Source of the DNA: Escherichia phage vB_EcoM-fFiEco06
Sequence record: NC_054914.1
Direction: 5' to 3' (one strand)
Length of the DNA stretch: 64,000 bases
Made by a program: the position numbers and the translations under genes. Of the stretch, positions 1 through 51,877 are shown piece by piece (positions within the stretch are counted from its first letter, which is position 1; each line of letters opens with the position of its first letter). Under the pieces are notes generated by a model, which had not been told where the DNA came from, did not search any database, and saw only the letters and a list, made by a program, of their open reading frames with translations.

Positions 1-1235
1 CTGCATTACTGCCAATTTATCCAGGTGGTGGTACTCGTGCATCTACTGCCAAGGCAGTATTTGGATATGGGCCGCAGACTGACTCACAGTACGCTATTAT
101 AGTTCGTCGAAATGATGCTATTGTTCAAAGCGTTGTTCTTTCAACTAAGTGTGGTGAAAAAGATATTTACGATAGTAACATCTATATCGATGACTTTTTC
201 GCAAAAGGTGGTTCAGAATATATTTTTGCAACTGCACAAAACTGGCCAGAAGGATTCTCTGGAATTTTAACTCTTTCTGGTGGATTATCATCAAATGCTG
301 AAGTTACAGCAGGAGATTTGATGGAAGCTTGGGACTTCTTTGCTGACCGTGAATCTGTTGACGTTCAACTGTTTATTGCGGGTTCTTGTGCCGGTGAATC
401 TTTAGAAACAGCATCTACTGTCCAAAAACACGTCGTTTCAATTGGAGATGCTCGCCAAGATTGCTTAGTATTGTGCTCACCACCGCGTGAAACTGTTGTT
501 GGAATTCCTGTAACTCGTGCAGTAGATAATTTAGTTAACTGGAGAACTGCGGCAGGTTCATATACTGATAATAACTTTAATATTAGTTCAACCTACGCAG
601 CAATTGATGGTAACTACAAATATCAGTATGACAAATATAATGATGTAAATCGTTGGGTTCCATTAGCAGCTGACATTGCTGGTTTATGCGCGAGAACTGA
701 TAACGTTTCTCAGACTTGGATGTCTCCAGCTGGTTATAATCGTGGTCAGATTCTTAACGTTATTAAACTTGCTATTGAAACTCGCCAAGCTCAGCGCGAC
801 CGTTTATATCAAGAAGCTATCAACCCAGTAACTGGTACAGGTGGTGATGGTTACGTATTGTATGGTGATAAAACAGCTACTTCTGTTCCTTCTCCATTTG
901 ATCGTATTAACGTTCGTCGTCTGTTTAATATGTTGAAAACGAATATCGGACGTAGTTCAAAATATCGTTTGTTCGAATTAAACAACGCGTTTACTCGTTC
1001 ATCATTCCGCACAGAAACTGCCCAATACTTACAGGGAATTAAAGCTCTCGGTGGAATTTATGAATATCGTGTAGTTTGCGATACAACAAATAACACTCCG
1101 TCAGTAATTGATAGAAATGAGTTTGTTGCAACATTCTACATTCAACCGGCTCGTAGTATAAATTATATCCAACTTAATTTCGTCGCAACTGCTACTGGTG
1201 CAGATTTTGATGAGTTAACTGGTCTTGCAGGTTAA
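1..1235 (+). CDS. 18: tail sheath protein gp18, C-terminal ~410 codons (5' end upstream of window; frame open from nt 3)
   Basis: Frame open from window edge to TAA 1233-1235; sits directly upstream of 19/20 in conserved T4 order. Confidence 0.85.
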   Translation, partial: ALLPIYPGGGTRASTAKAVFGYGPQTDSQYAIIVRRNDAIVQSVVLSTKCGEKDIYDSNIYIDDFFAKGGSEYIFATAQNWPEGFSGILTLSGGLSSNAEVTAGDLMEAWDFFADRESVDVQLFIAGSCAGESLETASTVQKHVVSIGDARQDCLVLCSPPRETVVGIPVTRAVDNLVNWRTAAGSYTDNNFNISSTYAAIDGNYKYQYDKYNDVNRWVPLAADIAGLCARTDNVSQTWMSPAGYNRGQILNVIKLAIETRQAQRDRLYQEAINPVTGTGGDGYVLYGDKTATSVPSPFDRINVRRLFNMLKTNIGRSSKYRLFELNNAFTRSSFRTETAQYLQGIKALGGIYEYRVVCDTTNNTPSVIDRNEFVATFYIQPARSINYIQLNFVATATGADFDELTGLAG

Positions 1236-1880
1236 TTGATTATGGGGCTTCGGCCCCTATTCTCGAGGAAACAAGTGATTATTTCTAAGTTTGTTACAAT
1301 AAAACCAAGAAATCATTCAAAAATGTGGTCGACAATTCTGGGATATAAAGTATCATATCATGATACAGTATCTGTTCCAATAGAATTAATGCCAAAGAAT
1401 AGTAATAAAATAGTTGACGCTAAATGTGATTTGTGTGGTATTAAATTTAGTAGAAGCATTCAGCTTTTAAATAGAACACCCACGCATGCATGTAGAAAAT
1501 GTAGCATTAAACAAGTTGCTATTAAAAATTCGGAAGTTCAATCTGGAATAAGTAGACCATGGCAAAGAGGTGATAAACATCCTCGATGGACTGGTAAAAG
1601 AAAAGAGTTTGCATTATATGCTAGTAGAGTTCATTCTATAACTAAGTCAGCTAAAATAAGAAAAATCTGGTCAAAATGGCCAAATGCTGATAAAATAGGA
1701 GTGTGTGGTGTAGAAGGTGCTTACCAGCTTGATCATAAGGTATCTATCAAATATGGATTTGATAATTTAATTCCGCCGGAAATTATAGCAAGCGTAAAAA
1801 ATTTAGAAATAATCACTTGGGAATCTAACCGAGAAAAGTCAAAAAGAAATAGCGTAGATCTTTGGGATTTACTAGAATGA
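1236..1880 (+). CDS. HNH-family endonuclease-like protein with N-terminal CxxC...CxxC zinc ribbon; probable free-standing homing endonuclease; start codon uncertain (TTG 1236, ATG 1242, GTG 1272 or ATG 1323)
   Basis: C-terminal motif YQLDHKVSIKYGFDNL...ITWESNREKSKRN (D-H...N...N) and CDLCG...CRKC seen in translation; ORF fills the gene 18/19 gap. Confidence 0.55.
   Translation: MIMGLRPLFSRKQVIISKFVTIKPRNHSKMWSTILGYKVSYHDTVSVPIELMPKNSNKIVDAKCDLCGIKFSRSIQLLNRTPTHACRKCSIKQVAIKNSEVQSGISRPWQRGDKHPRWTGKRKEFALYASRVHSITKSAKIRKIWSKWPNADKIGVCGVEGAYQLDHKVSIKYGFDNLIPPEIIASVKNLEIITWESNREKSKRNSVDLWDLLE
1244..1257 (+). terminator. GGGGC-UUCG-GCCCC tetraloop hairpin immediately after gene 18 stop
   Basis: Perfect 5-bp GC stem with UUCG loop read directly; weak U-tract. 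Confidence 0.6.
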
Positions 1881-44628: not shown

Positions 44629-44940
44629 TTACACCGCCATTTTTCCTTTCAAGACGCCGTGGGACTGATAATCTTTGAGAACGAAATCTTTAGGCCTGAG
44701 TTTAAGAATGTATTCCAATTGTTCTTTAGTAGAAAGATAGCGGAATTTATAAGGCAATCCGCCTATTACCAGTTCACAAAGCTCTTTAGGTTCACGACGC
44801 AAAATTTCTTTACATTGTTCTACGTGATTCATATAGATATGAGTATTACCACCGGAAAATATCAAATCTCCCGGAATAAGATTACACATCTTAGCTACAA
44901 TATGAACTAACGTAGCATATGATGCAATATTAAATGGAAG
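44629..44940 (-). CDS. td: thymidylate synthase exon 2 (103 codons, begins LPFNIASYA...)
   Basis: TS C-terminal sequence; exon junction deduced from reading frame. Confidence 0.92.
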   Translation of the reverse strand, partial: LPFNIASYATLVHIVAKMCNLIPGDLIFSGGNTHIYMNHVEQCKEILRREPKELCELVIGGLPYKFRYLSTKEQLEYILKLRPKDFVLKDYQSHGVLKGKMAV

Positions 44941-45956
44941 CATTATGTTCAGATAAGGTCGTTAATCTTACCCCGGAATTATATCCAGCTGCATGTCACC
45001 ATGCAGATCAGACTATATCTCCAACTTGTTAAAGCAAGTTGTCTATCGTTTCGAGTCACTTGACCCTACTCCCCAAAGGGATAGTCGTTAGGCATTTATG
45101 TAGAACCAATTCCATTTATCAGATTTTACACGATAAGTAACTAATCCAGACGAAATTTTAAAATGTCTAGCTGCATCTGCTGCACAATCAAAAATAACCC
45201 CATCACATGAAATCTTTTTAATATTACTAGGCTTTTTACCTTTCATCTTTTCTGATATTTTAGATTTAGTTATGTCTGAATGCTTATGATTAAAGAATGA
45301 ATTATTTTCACCTGAACGATTTCTGCATTTACTACAAGTATAAGCAGAAGTTTGTATGCGAACACCGCACTTACAAAACTTATGGGTTTCTGGATTCAAA
45401 CGCCCGTTTTTACTTCCGGGTTTACTGTAAAGAGCTTTCCGACCATCAGGTCCAAGTTTAAGCATCTTAGCTTTAACAGTTTCAGAACGTTTCTTAATAA
45501 TTTCTTCTTTTAATGGATGCGTAGAACATGTATCACCAAACGTTGCATCAGCAATATTGTATCCATTAATTTTAGAATTAAGCTCTTTAATCCAAAAATT
45601 TTCTCGTTCAATAATCAAATCTTTCTCATATGGAATTTCTTCCAAAATAGAACATTCAAACACATTACCATGTTTGTTAAAAGACCTCTGAAGCTTTATA
45701 GAAGAATGGCATCCTTTTTCTAAATCTTTAAAATGCCTCTTCCATCTCTTTTCAAAATCTTTAGCACTTCCTACATATACTTTATTGTTTAAAGTATTTT
45801 TAATCTGATAAATTCCGCTTTTCATAAATACCTCTTTAAATATAGAAGTATTTATTAAAGGGCAGTCCTACAATTTAGCACGGGATTGTCTACTAGAGAG
45901 GTTCCCCGTTTAGATAGATTACAAGTATAAGTCACCTTATACTCAGGCCTCAATTA
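44941..45956 (-). mobile_element. td group I self-splicing intron (1016 nt) carrying I-TevI
   Basis: Intron 5' sequence TAATTGAGGCCTGAGTATAAGGTGACTTATACTTGTAATC... recognised; length equals T4 td intron. Confidence 0.92.
45088..45825 (-). CDS. I-TevI: GIY-YIG homing endonuclease I-TevI (245 aa), intron-encoded
   Basis: N-terminus MKSGIYQIKNTLNNKVYVGSAKDFEKRWKRH (GIY...YVG) and zinc finger; length matches. Confidence 0.93.
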   Translation of the reverse strand: MKSGIYQIKNTLNNKVYVGSAKDFEKRWKRHFKDLEKGCHSSIKLQRSFNKHGNVFECSILEEIPYEKDLIIERENFWIKELNSKINGYNIADATFGDTCSTHPLKEEIIKKRSETVKAKMLKLGPDGRKALYSKPGSKNGRLNPETHKFCKCGVRIQTSAYTCSKCRNRSGENNSFFNHKHSDITKSKISEKMKGKKPSNIKKISCDGVIFDCAADAARHFKISSGLVTYRVKSDKWNWFYINA

Positions 45957-46504
45957 ACCCAAGAAAACATCTACTGATCGTTGATACCACTGCAAATCCA
46001 AATAGCCATTACGCACATTAAACTGATAGAACATATGACAAGGCGGTAATGCCATCTGCTTGAGTTCAGCTGGATTCCATGCTGAAACAATTTGACGCCT
46101 ATCATTTGGCAATTTTTTAATACGATCAATAACTTCTATAATTTGGTCTACACCACCAAAATCACGCCACTGTTTTCCATAAATTGGACCAAGTTCACCG
46201 CTATGGTATCCTAAATCTTTTGCTTGATTTTCGTAATTTTCATCCCAAACTGTTTTGCCTTGGATTAACGAATCATGTTGAATTAATCGCAAATCATTGA
46301 CATTTGTGCTTCCCGATAAAAACCAAAGCAGCTCAGCAATGCAAGCTTTCCAGGCGAGCTTCTTAGTTGTTACTGCAGGAAAACCTTTAGTTAAATCCCA
46401 GCGTAATTTAGTACCGAACAAAGCAATTGTTCCTGTGCCTGTTCGGTCATCGGTTTCGTAGCCATTTTCCAGGATATCTTTAATTAAAAATTGGTATTGT
46501 TTCA

Positions 46505-46505
<1 letters not shown>
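45957..46505 (-). CDS. td: thymidylate synthase exon 1 (183 codons, MKQYQ...VDVFLG)
   Basis: TS N-terminal sequence; exons 1+2 give 286 aa as in T4. Confidence 0.92.
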
Positions 46506-47534
<1,029 letters not shown>

Positions 47535-47925: not shown

Positions 47926-48291
47926 CTACTTTTTGAAAGTTTTTCGCAAAAGTTCAATGATTTCATCTACATTGTTTTCGTCAACAATGCAGTGAATTTT
48001 TGTTACGCCAGAAACTTTGTCTTTGACTTCATCTTCTTCAGAAGTCGGTTCTTTATACTCACGAAAACAATGAAATTCGTCTTCACAAACGTTAAAGTAA
48101 AAATGCTTTCCATTTGCGCATTCAATGTGTTTTATTACTCTAAATCCATCAACAAAGAAAGCTTCTTTAACTTCAAACCATCCGCCATTTTCTTGAATAA
48201 TTTTAACTATTGCTGAATTAGAACGTGGGCGATAATTAATAAATGTATCAATAAGTCTTGGAACAAGTTCATACTTTTTACCGATATACAT
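47926..48291 (-). CDS. hypothetical protein, 121 aa
   Basis: ORF with GAGG RBS after hairpin. Confidence 0.5.
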   Translation of the reverse strand: MYIGKKYELVPRLIDTFINYRPRSNSAIVKIIQENGGWFEVKEAFFVDGFRVIKHIECANGKHFYFNVCEDEFHCFREYKEPTSEEDEVKDKVSGVTKIHCIVDENNVDEIIELLRKTFKK

Positions 48292-48312
48292 TATGTTTTC
48301 CTCATTTTAACG

Positions 48313-48329
48313 GGGCTGTAATAGCCCCT
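48313..48329 (-). terminator. GGGGCT-(5 nt)-AGCCCC hairpin between early ORFs
   Basis: 6-bp stem read directly. Confidence 0.4.
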
Positions 48330-48335
48330 TGATAA

Positions 48336-48563
48336 TTATTGTTCAATCAATCCCATGTAAAATTCTGCGTCTTCAGAATCCATACCATCACAATATTCAT
48401 TAGCCATAAAGCGGGTGAGGTCTTCAAGAGGACCTTCAATAACGATTTGAATACTCCAAAACTTAGAATCTTGCACGCTTGTGATACTAAGTTCAGGATA
48501 ACGATTACGAATAATTTCTTCGATATATTCAAAATCAACGATGTCAATATCAACTTTAGCCAT
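48336..48563 (-). CDS. hypothetical acidic protein, 75 aa (start ATG 48563 with GAGGA RBS rather than the upstream in-frame ATG)
   Basis: Strong RBS TTAAAGAGGAAAATAAT-ATG. Confidence 0.5.
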
Positions 48564-48666
48564 ATTATTTTCCTCTTTAATCATCAGCAGTATTGCCGAT
48601 AGTTGTATAGTACCATGGAAGGACAAGGATGTAAACCGTTTTGTGAAAAAATTTTTGAAATAAAAA

Positions 48667-48685
48667 GGGGACCTCTAGGGTCCCC
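48667..48685 (-). terminator. GGGGACC-(5 nt)-GGTCCCC hairpin + U-tract downstream of gene 32
   Basis: 7-bp stem followed by TTTTTA on minus strand. Confidence 0.75.
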
Positions 48686-48707
48686 AATTAATTAGTAATA
48701 TAATCTA

Positions 48708-49616
48708 TTAAAGGTCATTCAAAAGGTCATCTAGGTCCGTGTCATCAGCACTAGATGAACTGCCAGAGCTTGAGCTCATAAAATCATCTTCAGTTTTTGT
48801 ATTGAAGTCATCAACATTGAATGCATCCAAATCATCAGCAACTTTATCAGCTTTCTTAGCAGCAGTTGCAGCAGCACCGCCCATCACAGCAGTTCCCATA
48901 ACTTGACCGAATTTAGTGCTCAGTTCTTCAAACGATTTGAATTTATCTTTAGAAGTCATTTCAGAAAGGTCAACCATTTGTTCGAACAGTTCTTTCTGGA
49001 AAGATTCATCGTCAATGTTTGGAATCGCAGATTGATTCAGGAATTTAGATTCGTCGTAGTTACTAAATCCAGAAACCTGTTTAACTTTCAGTACAAAGTT
49101 AGCACCTTCCCACGGACAAGTTACATCAACCGGAGTTTCACCCATTTCAACATCAACCGCAATCATCGCGTTGATTTTATCCCAGATTTTCTTACCGAAA
49201 CGATATTTAAATACTTTACCTTCATTTTCTGGAGCAGCTGGGTCTTTTACAACAAGAATATTAGCCCAGTAAGAAGTTTTACGTTTAACAAGACTGTACT
49301 CTTTATTGTCAGTGTTGTACAGATCATTTTTACTGATGTACTGACATACTGGACAAGAATCGTAATCACCGTGGGTAGATGAACAGTTTTCAATATACCA
49401 TTTACCATTTTTCTTGAAACCGTGATTTACAAGAATTGCGAACGGTGCTTGTTCATCATTTTTAGACGGAAGAAAACGAATTACTGCTTGACCGTTACCC
49501 GCATTGTCGAGTTTCAGTTTCCACTCGCCTTTATCTTCAGAAGAAAAACCACCTTTATTTCCAGCCAGTTTAGCCATTTGTGCAGCGAGTTCAGCAGTAG
49601 ATTTACGTTTAAACAT
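48708..49616 (-). CDS. 32: single-stranded DNA-binding protein gp32
   Basis: Sequence recognisable as T4 gp32 ([17 protein letters not shown]...; acidic Ser-rich C-terminus). Confidence 0.95.
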
Positions 49617-49682
49617 TTTTATTTCCTTTTTAATTTAATTAACAGTTGGTGCTATGACGATGTATGACCTCATAGCTGGTCA
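49617..49682 (-). promoter_or_regulatory. gene 32 autoregulatory translational operator: A/U-rich leader (UUAAUUAAAUUAAAAAGGAAAUAAAAAUG) preceded by an RNA pseudoknot
   Basis: Minus-strand leader read directly; pseudoknot stems UGACC/GGUCA and GCUAUGA/UCAUAGC. Confidence 0.75.
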
Positions 49683-49699
49683 GTGAGATAATTATAATC

Positions 49700-49707
49700 T
49701 ATTTATA
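49700..49707 (-). promoter_or_regulatory. late promoter TATAAATA (minus strand) upstream of gene 32 leader
   Basis: Exact TATTTATA on plus strand. Confidence 0.55.
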
Positions 49708-49715
49708 ATAAGCAA

Positions 49716-50369
49716 TTAATACTTGCAAGATTTCACAGTTTCAATGAAAACATTTTTAGCTTTCTGTGAATCAATATTTAAAATTTTTCTATAAGCCTTT
49801 AACTTTATAGAATAATTATTCCAGACTAAATTATCAGTCTGTTCATCATGTTTATCAATTATATTTAAAAACGAATCAAGCAAGATAAACGTTTCAAACG
49901 AAATTATATTCGATTGAAGTAGTTTAAAAATATAACTTGATTGAACTTTTGGATTATACTCAAAGATTTCTTTAAAAGCAGAAACTTCAACTTTCTTACT
50001 AAAATAATAAATGTTGCGAATATCTTCTTCAAACTTAAATTTAATTTGCTTTAAGCGTCCGATATATTCACGATAAAACACAAGTGCATCAGCGTCAGAG
50101 ATGTCGCCAATCCAAGCATCCTGGTTAGCAACAAGATTGCTTATAAAGATTAAAGCAAGTTCCTTTAATTTATATTTTTCTGATAACTTCTGGAAAAAAT
50201 ACTTATCCCTTCGCTTTTGATAAGCGGCATCAGACACCCGCATGCACCAATTATACTTAATAACATCATACTTTCCATTCATATGTTGTTTTATCATTAA
50301 GTATAATTTATAAACTGATTTACCATCAATGTATCTTTCACCACCAGCAGGCATGCGGAGTTTAATCAT
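49716..50369 (-). CDS. 59: helicase loader gp59 (217 aa)
   Basis: Sequence recognisable as T4 gp59 (MIKLRMPAGGERYIDGKSVYKLY...). Confidence 0.92.
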   Translation of the reverse strand: MIKLRMPAGGERYIDGKSVYKLYLMIKQHMNGKYDVIKYNWCMRVSDAAYQKRRDKYFFQKLSEKYKLKELALIFISNLVANQDAWIGDISDADALVFYREYIGRLKQIKFKFEEDIRNIYYFSKKVEVSAFKEIFEYNPKVQSSYIFKLLQSNIISFETFILLDSFLNIIDKHDEQTDNLVWNNYSIKLKAYRKILNIDSQKAKNVFIETVKSCKY

Positions 50370-50704
50370 AGTAGAAAATCTAATGTATTAGTTTTTTCAC
50401 AACGAACAACAGAAGGACGTAAAAGATTTTCGTCAATGGCTTCTGACTGAATTTTTTCAATTATACCCGAAGGAATAAATTTAGCAAATTGAGTTTCAGG
50501 AATAGAGTTTTCTTCTAAGAATGCTGTTGTAGCTTCAAGATAACTCATTCCAAACTCTTCTACCATTTTTTCAATAATAAATCCATTTTCTTGACGATCA
50601 AGAAGCTTTGCTATTTCATCCTTTTCTTTCTTGATTGAAAGTTCTTTTTCTGAAAGACCGGTCTCATCGACCGGACGAATGTCATTTAGAGAAAACTGTG
50701 TCAT
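50366..50704 (-). CDS. 33: late transcription co-activator gp33 (112 aa; start ATG 50704)
   Basis: N-terminus MTQFSLNDIRPVDE...; length matches T4 gp33. Confidence 0.85.
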   Translation of the reverse strand: MTQFSLNDIRPVDETGLSEKELSIKKEKDEIAKLLDRQENGFIIEKMVEEFGMSYLEATTAFLEENSIPETQFAKFIPSGIIEKIQSEAIDENLLRPSVVRCEKTNTLDFLL

Positions 50705-50951
50705 AAAGTTCAACTACCTCTTCAGTTTCAGCTTCAAACACATCACGGTTATCTTTATGATACAAAGCTAATAGACGATTAAACATCTTACCATCAACGC
50801 CAAGTTCATCTTTGGCACGAATTCGAATATCTTTAATCAGTTCATTATAACCGGAAATTTTCAGTTTATGATCAGATGCTTCTTTAATAAATTTAGCCAA
50901 GTCTTCGCCATGGATAGCTTCATCAAATTCAACCATTTCTTTTTTAGCCAT
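50682..50951 (-). CDS. dsbA: dsDNA-binding protein DsbA (89 aa)
   Basis: Size/position; overlaps gene 33 start. Confidence 0.75.
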   Translation of the reverse strand: MAKKEMVEFDEAIHGEDLAKFIKEASDHKLKISGYNELIKDIRIRAKDELGVDGKMFNRLLALYHKDNRDVFEAETEEVVELYDTVFSK

Positions 50952-50959
50952 TATTCACC

Positions 50960-51877
50960 TCAAAATTCATTAATGCTATTAGTTAATTTAGAAAGACCCG
51001 CTTTTACAAAATATGAATAAATTTTGCCACGCGGTGGTAATTTATATGAATTATAGTAATTCACAATGTTTGAAGCAATATTATCAGGAATATAATCAAA
51101 ATCAATTAGAACTAAATTTTCTTTATAACGATTATACTCAGATTCTGAGAGAAGCACCTTAGCTTGCTCACGGTCATTAGCAATAGCTTCAACGATTGAA
51201 GTTTTCATTGAAGGAGTTCGTTCACCTTCAACTCTGGTAAACCAAAAGTCAGATCGTACTTTAACTGAAGCAACGTTATCCTTTTTGTCGCCTTTAAGGA
51301 TTTTAGTCATACAGTCAATTTCAGCAGAACCGCTTTTAATTTTAACCCATTTCTTATGCATCGGTGACCATTGCTTAACATTTGGATATTTGTGAAGCTG
51401 TGTAAAGTCACCATCCGACGAAATGATTAAAATCTTGTGTCCTTCTAAAGAGAACTTTTTAACAAGAACAGCAATATGGTCATCTGCTTCATACTTATCA
51501 ATATCCATAACAATGTATGGCATATAAGCTTTCAATTCATCTATAACTTTATGGCTGGATTCAAAATAACCTTCCCAGTCCCAAGTAGATTCTTCTCGTG
51601 CTTTTCCACGGTTTTTCTTATAATAATAAGCAAAATCACGACGCCAGTATCCAGATTTCGCGTTATCAATACACAGCACAATTTTAGTGTATCCAAGCGT
51701 TTTTGCTTTTTTGACATTAAACTTAATTGAGTTCAATATCAAATGACGAACCATTGATAAATTAATTTTTTCTTTATCTGGGAAGTTTACCAGAGCAGTT
51801 GAAAGAGCAATTTGACTAAAGTCAATAAAGCAAATTCCTTCTTTGTAATCTTCATCCAGCATCATTTCTAAATCCAT
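50960..51877 (-). CDS. rnh: RNase H / 5'-3' exonuclease (305 aa; start ATG 51877 with GAGG RBS)
   Basis: N-terminus MDLEMMLDEDYKEGI...; FEN-family acidic residues. Confidence 0.9.
   Translation of the reverse strand: MDLEMMLDEDYKEGICFIDFSQIALSTALVNFPDKEKINLSMVRHLILNSIKFNVKKAKTLGYTKIVLCIDNAKSGYWRRDFAYYYKKNRGKAREESTWDWEGYFESSHKVIDELKAYMPYIVMDIDKYEADDHIAVLVKKFSLEGHKILIISSDGDFTQLHKYPNVKQWSPMHKKWVKIKSGSAEIDCMTKILKGDKKDNVASVKVRSDFWFTRVEGERTPSMKTSIVEAIANDREQAKVLLSESEYNRYKENLVLIDFDYIPDNIASNIVNYYNSYKLPPRGKIYSYFVKAGLSKLTNSINEF

Follow-up and report, generated by a model that had tools for sequence, protein, structure and literature searches.

The window analysed here is a stretch of 64,000 bp from Escherichia phage vB_EcoM-fFiEco06 (accession no.: NC_054914.1), in which genes 59 and 32 lie next to each other on the minus strand. 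Gene 59 (49716..50369), which encodes the helicase loader (217 aa), was identified by its ORF, by the annotation of record MG781191.1 and by its 3' end, which equals that of T4 through the stop codon. Gene 32 (48708..49616), encoding the single-stranded DNA-binding protein gp32 as an allele of T2 length (302 aa), was assigned by its ORF, by the gp32 annotation in MG781191.1 and by alignment with gene 32 of T4 and T2. MG781191.1 is the record of Escherichia phage vB_EcoM-fHoEco02 (Tequatrovirus), which is 100% identical to the window over 2.7 kb around the gap and carries the same annotation of both genes and of the 99-bp gap between them. Upstream of gene 59 are located genes 33, dsbA and rnh and downstream of gene 32 frd.3, frd.2, frd.1 and frd, all on the minus strand. 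Two small minus-strand ORFs, one of 81 aa between frd and frd.1 (47289..47534) and one of about 68 aa between td and frd (approximately 46505..46711), are not matched by any gene annotated in the corresponding interval of T4; both are annotated as hypothetical in fHoEco02 and in phage PYps5T, and the 81-aa ORF also in T2 (AP018813). Just 3' of the stop codon of gene 32, a terminator-like hairpin of 7 pairs, 6 of them G-C, is followed by a T run (TTTTTATTTC; 48667..48685, minus strand).

The intercistronic stretch between genes 59 and 32 (49617..49715, minus strand) was delimited by the ORF coordinates and by alignments. A previous sequence-only reading had described a gap of about 100 bp at 49617-49715 with no room for segG, and indeed the gap amounts to exactly 99 bp and the ORF list of the window contains no ORF of ≥40 aa wholly inside it. 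Two antisense ORFs on the plus strand, 49422..49667 (81 aa) and 49504..49638 (44 aa), lie mostly over gene 32 and extend into the gap. A SegG homologue was searched for in the whole 64-kb window, by tblastn with T4 SegG (best E = 2.9) and by blastn with T4 segG, and no significant match was obtained.

The same reading had assigned to the gap only the gene 32 operator, a pseudoknot and a late promoter. An operator, a pseudoknot and a late-promoter consensus were all found, but they are not the only elements, since a middle-promoter-like motif is present as well. The T4-type late-promoter consensus TATAAATA was matched at 49707..49700 (minus strand), 84-91 nt upstream of the ATG of gene 32; the pattern occurs 18 times in the whole window, with 7.95 matches expected from shuffled sequences, so that a single match is only suggestive. 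It is nested in the middle-promoter-like motif TGCTT-N13-TATAAT (49714..49691, minus strand), also found by pattern matching, in which TGCTT resembles a MotA box; a relaxed version of this pattern gave 30 matches in the window with 19.9 expected. In the record of SA21RB (OL960580.1), a phage without segG, an independent annotation marks both motifs at the corresponding position, the second one as a T4-like middle promoter, and, as judged from these patterns, both may be used as promoters. A scan of the region for sigma-70 promoters, whose model does not cover the T4 middle and late promoters, gave matches no more frequent than chance (9, with 8.0 expected). Slightly further downstream, GAUUA and AAUUA (49699..49689, minus strand) fit RAUUW, the motif of RNase E sites, and are putative sites of this kind.

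The leader continues with an H-type pseudoknot of the T2 type, the gene 32 autoregulatory element, at 49682..49651 on the minus strand (-67..-36 from the AUG). All 12 of its 12 pairs are standard: stem 1 has 5 pairs (UGACC/GGUCA, 49682-49678 with 49669-49665) and stem 2 has 7 (GCUAUGA/UCAUAGC, 49676-49670 with 49657-49651), loop 1 is a single A and loop 2 comprises the 7 nt UACAUCG. Its sequence, CUGACCAGCUAUGAGGUCAUACAUCGUCAUAGC, is identical to that of T2. The minimum free energy (MFE) fold contains stem 2, pseudoknots as such being outside the prediction of the folding tool, and in an Rfam scan of 49300..50000 the gene 32 pseudoknot was not represented by any family. In record OL960580.1 of SA21RB, positions 1315..1350, which correspond approximately to 49675..49640 of the window and thus to the pseudoknot region, are labelled "rho-independent terminator", probably a mis-annotation by hairpin-finding software. 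The pseudoknot is followed by the A/U-rich translational operator (49650..49617, minus strand), which contains UUAAAUUAAA with its UUAAA repeats, is predicted to be unpaired in the MFE fold and includes the Shine-Dalgarno sequence AAGGAAA at 49628-49622; in the alignment, the window has one UUAAA repeat fewer than T4. The arrangement is that of a gene 32 translational operator, an H-type pseudoknot with two stems and then an unstructured A/U-rich tract reaching to the start codon. Repression of translation by cooperative gp32 binding is established for T4 and was tested for RB69 (PMC535899).

In T4 (NC_000866), gene 59 (148543..149196) and gene 32 (146948..147853) are separated by the gene for the GIY-YIG homing endonuclease SegG (147909..148541, 633 bp). 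Between the stop codon of gene 59 and the ATG of gene 32 there are 689-690 bp in T4 and 99 bp in the window, so that the T4 alignment, which had been proposed as a check of the sequence-only reading, does not show the same short gap (689 bp against 99 bp). The claim that T4 has segG at the 32/59 junction was likewise confirmed, by the NC_000866 annotation, by the alignment and by the literature: segG is listed by Edgell, Gibb and Belfort as a free-standing GIY-YIG gene inserted at 32/59 whose target is gene 32 (PMC2988022), and Borjac-Natour et al. mention it as a gene of T4 that T2 (AY310907) and RB69 lack (PMC535899). The further claim that SegG causes the exclusion of T2 gene 32 alleles is stated in two papers, each citing Liu et al. 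2003 (PMC2330249, PMC535899); Brok-Volchanskaya et al. hold SegG responsible for exclusion of gene 32 of T2L (PMC2330249).

The homology of the window to T4 runs through the stop codon of gene 59, breaks off and resumes at CCAGCTATGAGG (49679) within the pseudoknot. Between these points the window has 36 nt (49680..49715, minus strand), where T4 has about 625 nt that are nearly all segG ORF. Alignments with T4 and PYps5T define this 36-nt segment as specific to segG-less phages: it was present in 7/7 segG-less loci and absent from 14/14 segG-positive ones. The stop codon (TGA) of T4 segG falls in stem 2 of the pseudoknot, and T4 carries a TATAAATA of its own within segG. The middle and late promoters of gene 32 sit within T4 segG (PMC2988022), and the segG reading frame extends into the 5' part of the pseudoknot in T4 (PMC535899). 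Stem 1 of the T4-type pseudoknot reads UGCC/GGUA and is still paired, and its loop 2 is shorter than that of the window.

Compared with T2, 251 bp across the junction are 100% identical to records PV958097.1 and AP018813.1 and 99.6% identical to the partial T2 record AY310907.2, in which the gap also has 99 bp. We are highly confident that the gene 59-32 junction of the window is uninvaded and its allele of the T2 type; T4 and some of its relatives have segG at this site. Within gene 32, at +52..+66 (49551..49565), window and T2 have a 3-nt insertion and three substitutions relative to T4, by which gp32 has 302 instead of 301 aa.

To see how common each state is, 50,697 phage records were searched; these GenBank records were used instead of IMG/VR, where a search with SegG yielded 2 loci only. 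The junction was matched in some form in 499 records, segG was present in 142, about a quarter of the T4 relatives, and the T2-type empty leader was found in about 355 (derived as 477 - 161 + 39). Absence of segG is thus the majority state (about 71%). The empty junction as such is a known and well described polymorphism and, being the majority state of the genus, not an unusual arrangement; as 355 records have the same short junction, an error of assembly is a very unlikely cause. In three of 14 segG-positive loci segG is frameshifted or truncated, with the first stop after 27 codons in AugustSocin, 178 in a51 and 64 in IMG/VR 3300045988_128797; these copies look like decaying endonuclease genes, and the ACA codon of gene 32 described below is kept in all three.

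Gene 32 itself was compared in 22 sequences, the window and 21 fetched loci, of which 15 were segG-positive and seven segG-negative. The codon at +229..231 was the sole polymorphism that tracked segG perfectly: it was ACA (Thr) in 15/15 segG-positive sequences, and AAC or AAT (Asn) in six and ACG in one of the seven segG-negative ones. The window has AAC (49388..49386, minus strand). This codon presumably adjoins that for the zinc-ligand Cys77 of gp32. The block at +52..66 lies nearer to segG but assorts independently of it among the segG-positive phages, five of which (AugustSocin, HY01, SH-2, JK38 and a51) have T2-like alleles there and ACA at +229..231.

The linkage was then determined in the record set with queries in which a 3' segment of segG or a segment of the T2-type leader was joined to the exact 30-mer of each allele. 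By itself, the AAC 30-mer of the window was found in 218 records and is the commonest allele overall, followed by ACA in the T4 haplotype (161 records), AAT in the T2 haplotype (35) and ACA in the HY01 haplotype (30). The union of segG and AAC amounted to 360 records (142 + 218), with both present in none: the AAC allele of the window is absent from the 142 segG-positive records and all 218 AAC records lack segG. ACA, on the other hand, was found together with segG in 122 records in the T4 haplotype and in 15 in the HY01 haplotype, that is, in at least 137 of the 142 segG-positive records. The union of T2-type leader and AAC was 355 records, which means that the junction is empty in all AAC records; this union was used because the count of 314 records with both at "80% coverage" is inflated by gapped extension of the AAC 30-mer into the similar A/U-rich operator. 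The T2-type leader was joined to ACA of the T4 haplotype in 39 records, namely phage T6 (MH550421.1, AP018814.1) and 37 others, one of them named T4_ev151 (LR597660.1), and the donor-type codon is thus already present in about 15% of the empty-site phages. This combination fits either conversion of gene 32 without co-inheritance of segG or a later loss of segG.

The association of ACA with segG could in part be due to their physical linkage, at a distance of 285 bp, and to common descent of the records rather than to selection for self-immunity. The nearer markers at +52..66, which are unlinked from segG, argue for such selection. The original SegG paper probably already implies a linkage of codon and segG at the population level.

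Whether gene 32 of the window would be a substrate of SegG depends on where the enzyme cuts. SegG reportedly cuts unusually far from its insertion site, at a distance of 332 bp (attributed to Liu et al. 2003). Counted from the stop codon of gene 59, 332 bp lead to position 49384 (+233), and from this figure together with indirect comparative evidence we infer a cut at about +233 of gene 32, within a predicted SegG target region at 49372..49397 (minus strand) that has the AAC codon as its key codon. Around this position (+213..+242), 27 of 30 nt are identical between window and T2. The differences are located at +225, +231 and +234; the window matches T4 at +225 and +234, is unique at +231 and shares the T2 base at +230 as well as, further off, at +246. 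Because the window differs at three positions from the T2 sequence that SegG cleaves, its sensitivity cannot be read from T2 identity.

As regards SegG homing, the window phage is most likely naive and invadable as a recipient, and from the comparison of alleles we consider it probable that its gene 32 would be cut. The strongest competitor of this interpretation is a junction that is empty but immune: the AAC allele would not be cut by SegG, there would be no exclusion of gene 32 markers and the lack of AAC in segG-positive phages would reflect linkage or history. Some substitutions in their targets are tolerated by GIY-YIG enzymes and others are not, and the two T4 bases at +225 and +234 together with the unique base at +231 would fit such a resistance. 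Yet AAC, although the commonest allele with 218 records, occurs in 0/142 segG-positive records, and the markers at +52..66 were unlinked from segG in 5/15 segG-positive phages but the codon at +230/231 never was. Furthermore, only +230/231 set the HY01 haplotype apart from the T2 30-mer, which is cleavable, and at +230 the window has the T2 base. With the window-like backbone of the phages described next added to this, we regard immunity of the AAC allele as unlikely, albeit as an explanation of some weight.

Seven phages, a15, PYps5T, ES12, ES26, JK08, PYps35T and ASO78A, have segG inserted but otherwise agree with the window at approximately 99% identity. PYps5T was scored at the sites where window and T4 differ. 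It was window-like at 24/26 informative sites upstream, in genes 59, 33 and dsbA (51476..49893), and, downstream of +264 (49353..48121), at an unbroken series of 109 informative sites. T4-like bases were confined to segG itself and to the tract from the junction to +246 (49710..49371, 18 sites), which ends between +246 and +264. By this pattern, phages of the PYps5T type look like products of homing, with a T4-like patch in a window-like backbone. Such a tract would result from a double-strand break by SegG near +233, repair from a donor of the T4 type and resection back through segG.

Secondary loss was considered as another origin of the short gap. Here, an ancestor would have had segG, and the gap would be a deletion scar or a reversion instead of a site that was never invaded. 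Homing endonuclease genes do decay, segG is frameshifted in 3/14 segG-positive loci, and the 39 segG-less records with the donor-type ACA, T6 included, would fit a loss as well as conversion without co-inheritance of segG. In the window, however, the T2-specific promoter segment of 36 nt is complete and the pseudoknot is of the T2 type, and both are missing from T4-type genomes; a deletion could not recreate them, and only recombination with an empty-site phage could. In addition, its codon is AAC and not the ACA expected of a former carrier of segG, and it is T2-like at +52..66, +230 and +246. Taken together, this makes secondary loss improbable. That another small gene or a non-coding RNA gene is hidden in the gap in place of segG is least probable of all, and we give it hardly any weight: the two plus-strand ORFs that extend into the gap and a weak, sub-threshold Rfam match are met by the facts that gene 32 with its leader is encoded on the strand opposite to both ORFs, that a gap ORF is annotated in 0/4 records of segG-less phages and that the known control elements of gene 32 explain the whole 99 nt. 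The Rfam match, to DUF2815 RNA, was rejected as spurious, as it is far below threshold (19.1 bits, where the gathering score is 41.2; E = 0.81) and was aligned mainly to the Shine-Dalgarno/AUG region.

With the uninvaded T2-type junction as the preferred reading, the workings of the locus may be pictured as follows. In the empty allele, the putative expression signals of gene 32 lie in the gap itself, namely the overlapping middle-like and late promoter motifs, the RNase E-like AUU motifs, the pseudoknot and the operator, and gp32 would repress its own translation via pseudoknot and operator. In T4, segG has taken the place of the 36-nt promoter segment; the substitute promoters are inside the segG ORF, whose last codons extend into the variant pseudoknot. 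The window phage would make no SegG. Upon co-infection with a segG-positive phage, a cut in its gene 32 near +233 would be followed by repair from the donor, by which the 5' part of gene 32 would be converted and segG would sometimes be brought in.

The empty junction alone is of little import: that this selfish gene is present in some T-even phages and absent from others is textbook knowledge, and the junction is identical to that of T2. The counts of segG and of codon +230/231 over about 500 genomes offer a simple, testable picture of invadable natural alleles. We tentatively suggest, with somewhat less than even confidence, that +230/231 (Asn AAY versus Thr ACA) is a natural on/off switch of SegG cleavage and that T4-like genomes represent three stages of the life cycle of a homing endonuclease. 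If so, the first stage would comprise about 300 records with an empty junction and a codon other than ACA, presumed sensitive where it encodes Asn (218 with AAC alone, the window phage included), the second about 53 records, T6 among them, that are empty and immune, and the third the 142 records that are filled and immune, some of them with a decayed segG. Phages of the fHoEco02 type would then be the main reservoir that is now being invaded by segG, and PYps5T-like phages would be fresh products with a minimal conversion tract. For crosses and the design of phage cocktails, the practical expectation is that co-infection with a phage of the T4 type would cost a phage that has neither segG nor an immune gene 32 allele its gene 32 region and would sometimes give it segG.

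Among the known systems close to the window is the gene 59-32 region of T2, the segG-less recipient of the marker-exclusion work with T4 x T2, which agrees with the window in pseudoknot, operator and promoter motifs. Within gene 32 the window is a mosaic; it departs from T2 near the putative SegG target at +225, +231 and +234, and the target codon is AAT in T2 and AAC in the window, both encoding Asn. A second difference lies in td (approximately 44629..46505), which is uninterrupted in T2 (861 bp) but in the window contains a group I intron with I-TevI (45091..45825, minus strand), the latter being 99.6% identical to I-TevI of T4 over 245 aa. Because the td intron is present and segG is absent, the window phage is T4-like for I-TevI and T2-like for segG.

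The segG locus of T4 (segG was formerly named 32.1) shares with the window the collinear genes 59 and 32, stem 2 of the pseudoknot, the operator and the Shine-Dalgarno sequence. Unlike the window, which has 99 bp and no segG, it has the segG ORF in a 689-bp gap; the promoter motifs, intergenic in the window, are inside segG in T4, stem 1 of the window (UGACC/GGUCA) and its longer loop 2 differ from T4, and the target codon is AAC in the window but ACA in T4. Like the window, the IC59-32 region of RB69 is without segG and has the translational control elements of gene 32 directly between genes 59 and 32 (PMC535899). RB69, which is considered here from that paper alone, is more distant and its leader has diverged, with approximately 83% identity to T4 in the 5' segment of the pseudoknot (PMC535899). 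The empty homing sites of other free-standing T-even endonucleases, SegF (gene 56), SegE (hoc.1-uvsW) and SegB (tRNA cluster), follow the same logic of presence and absence among close relatives (PMC2988022, PMC2330249): as for SegG, the cut is made in a gene next to the endonuclease gene, with co-conversion of flanking markers, but locus and target differ.
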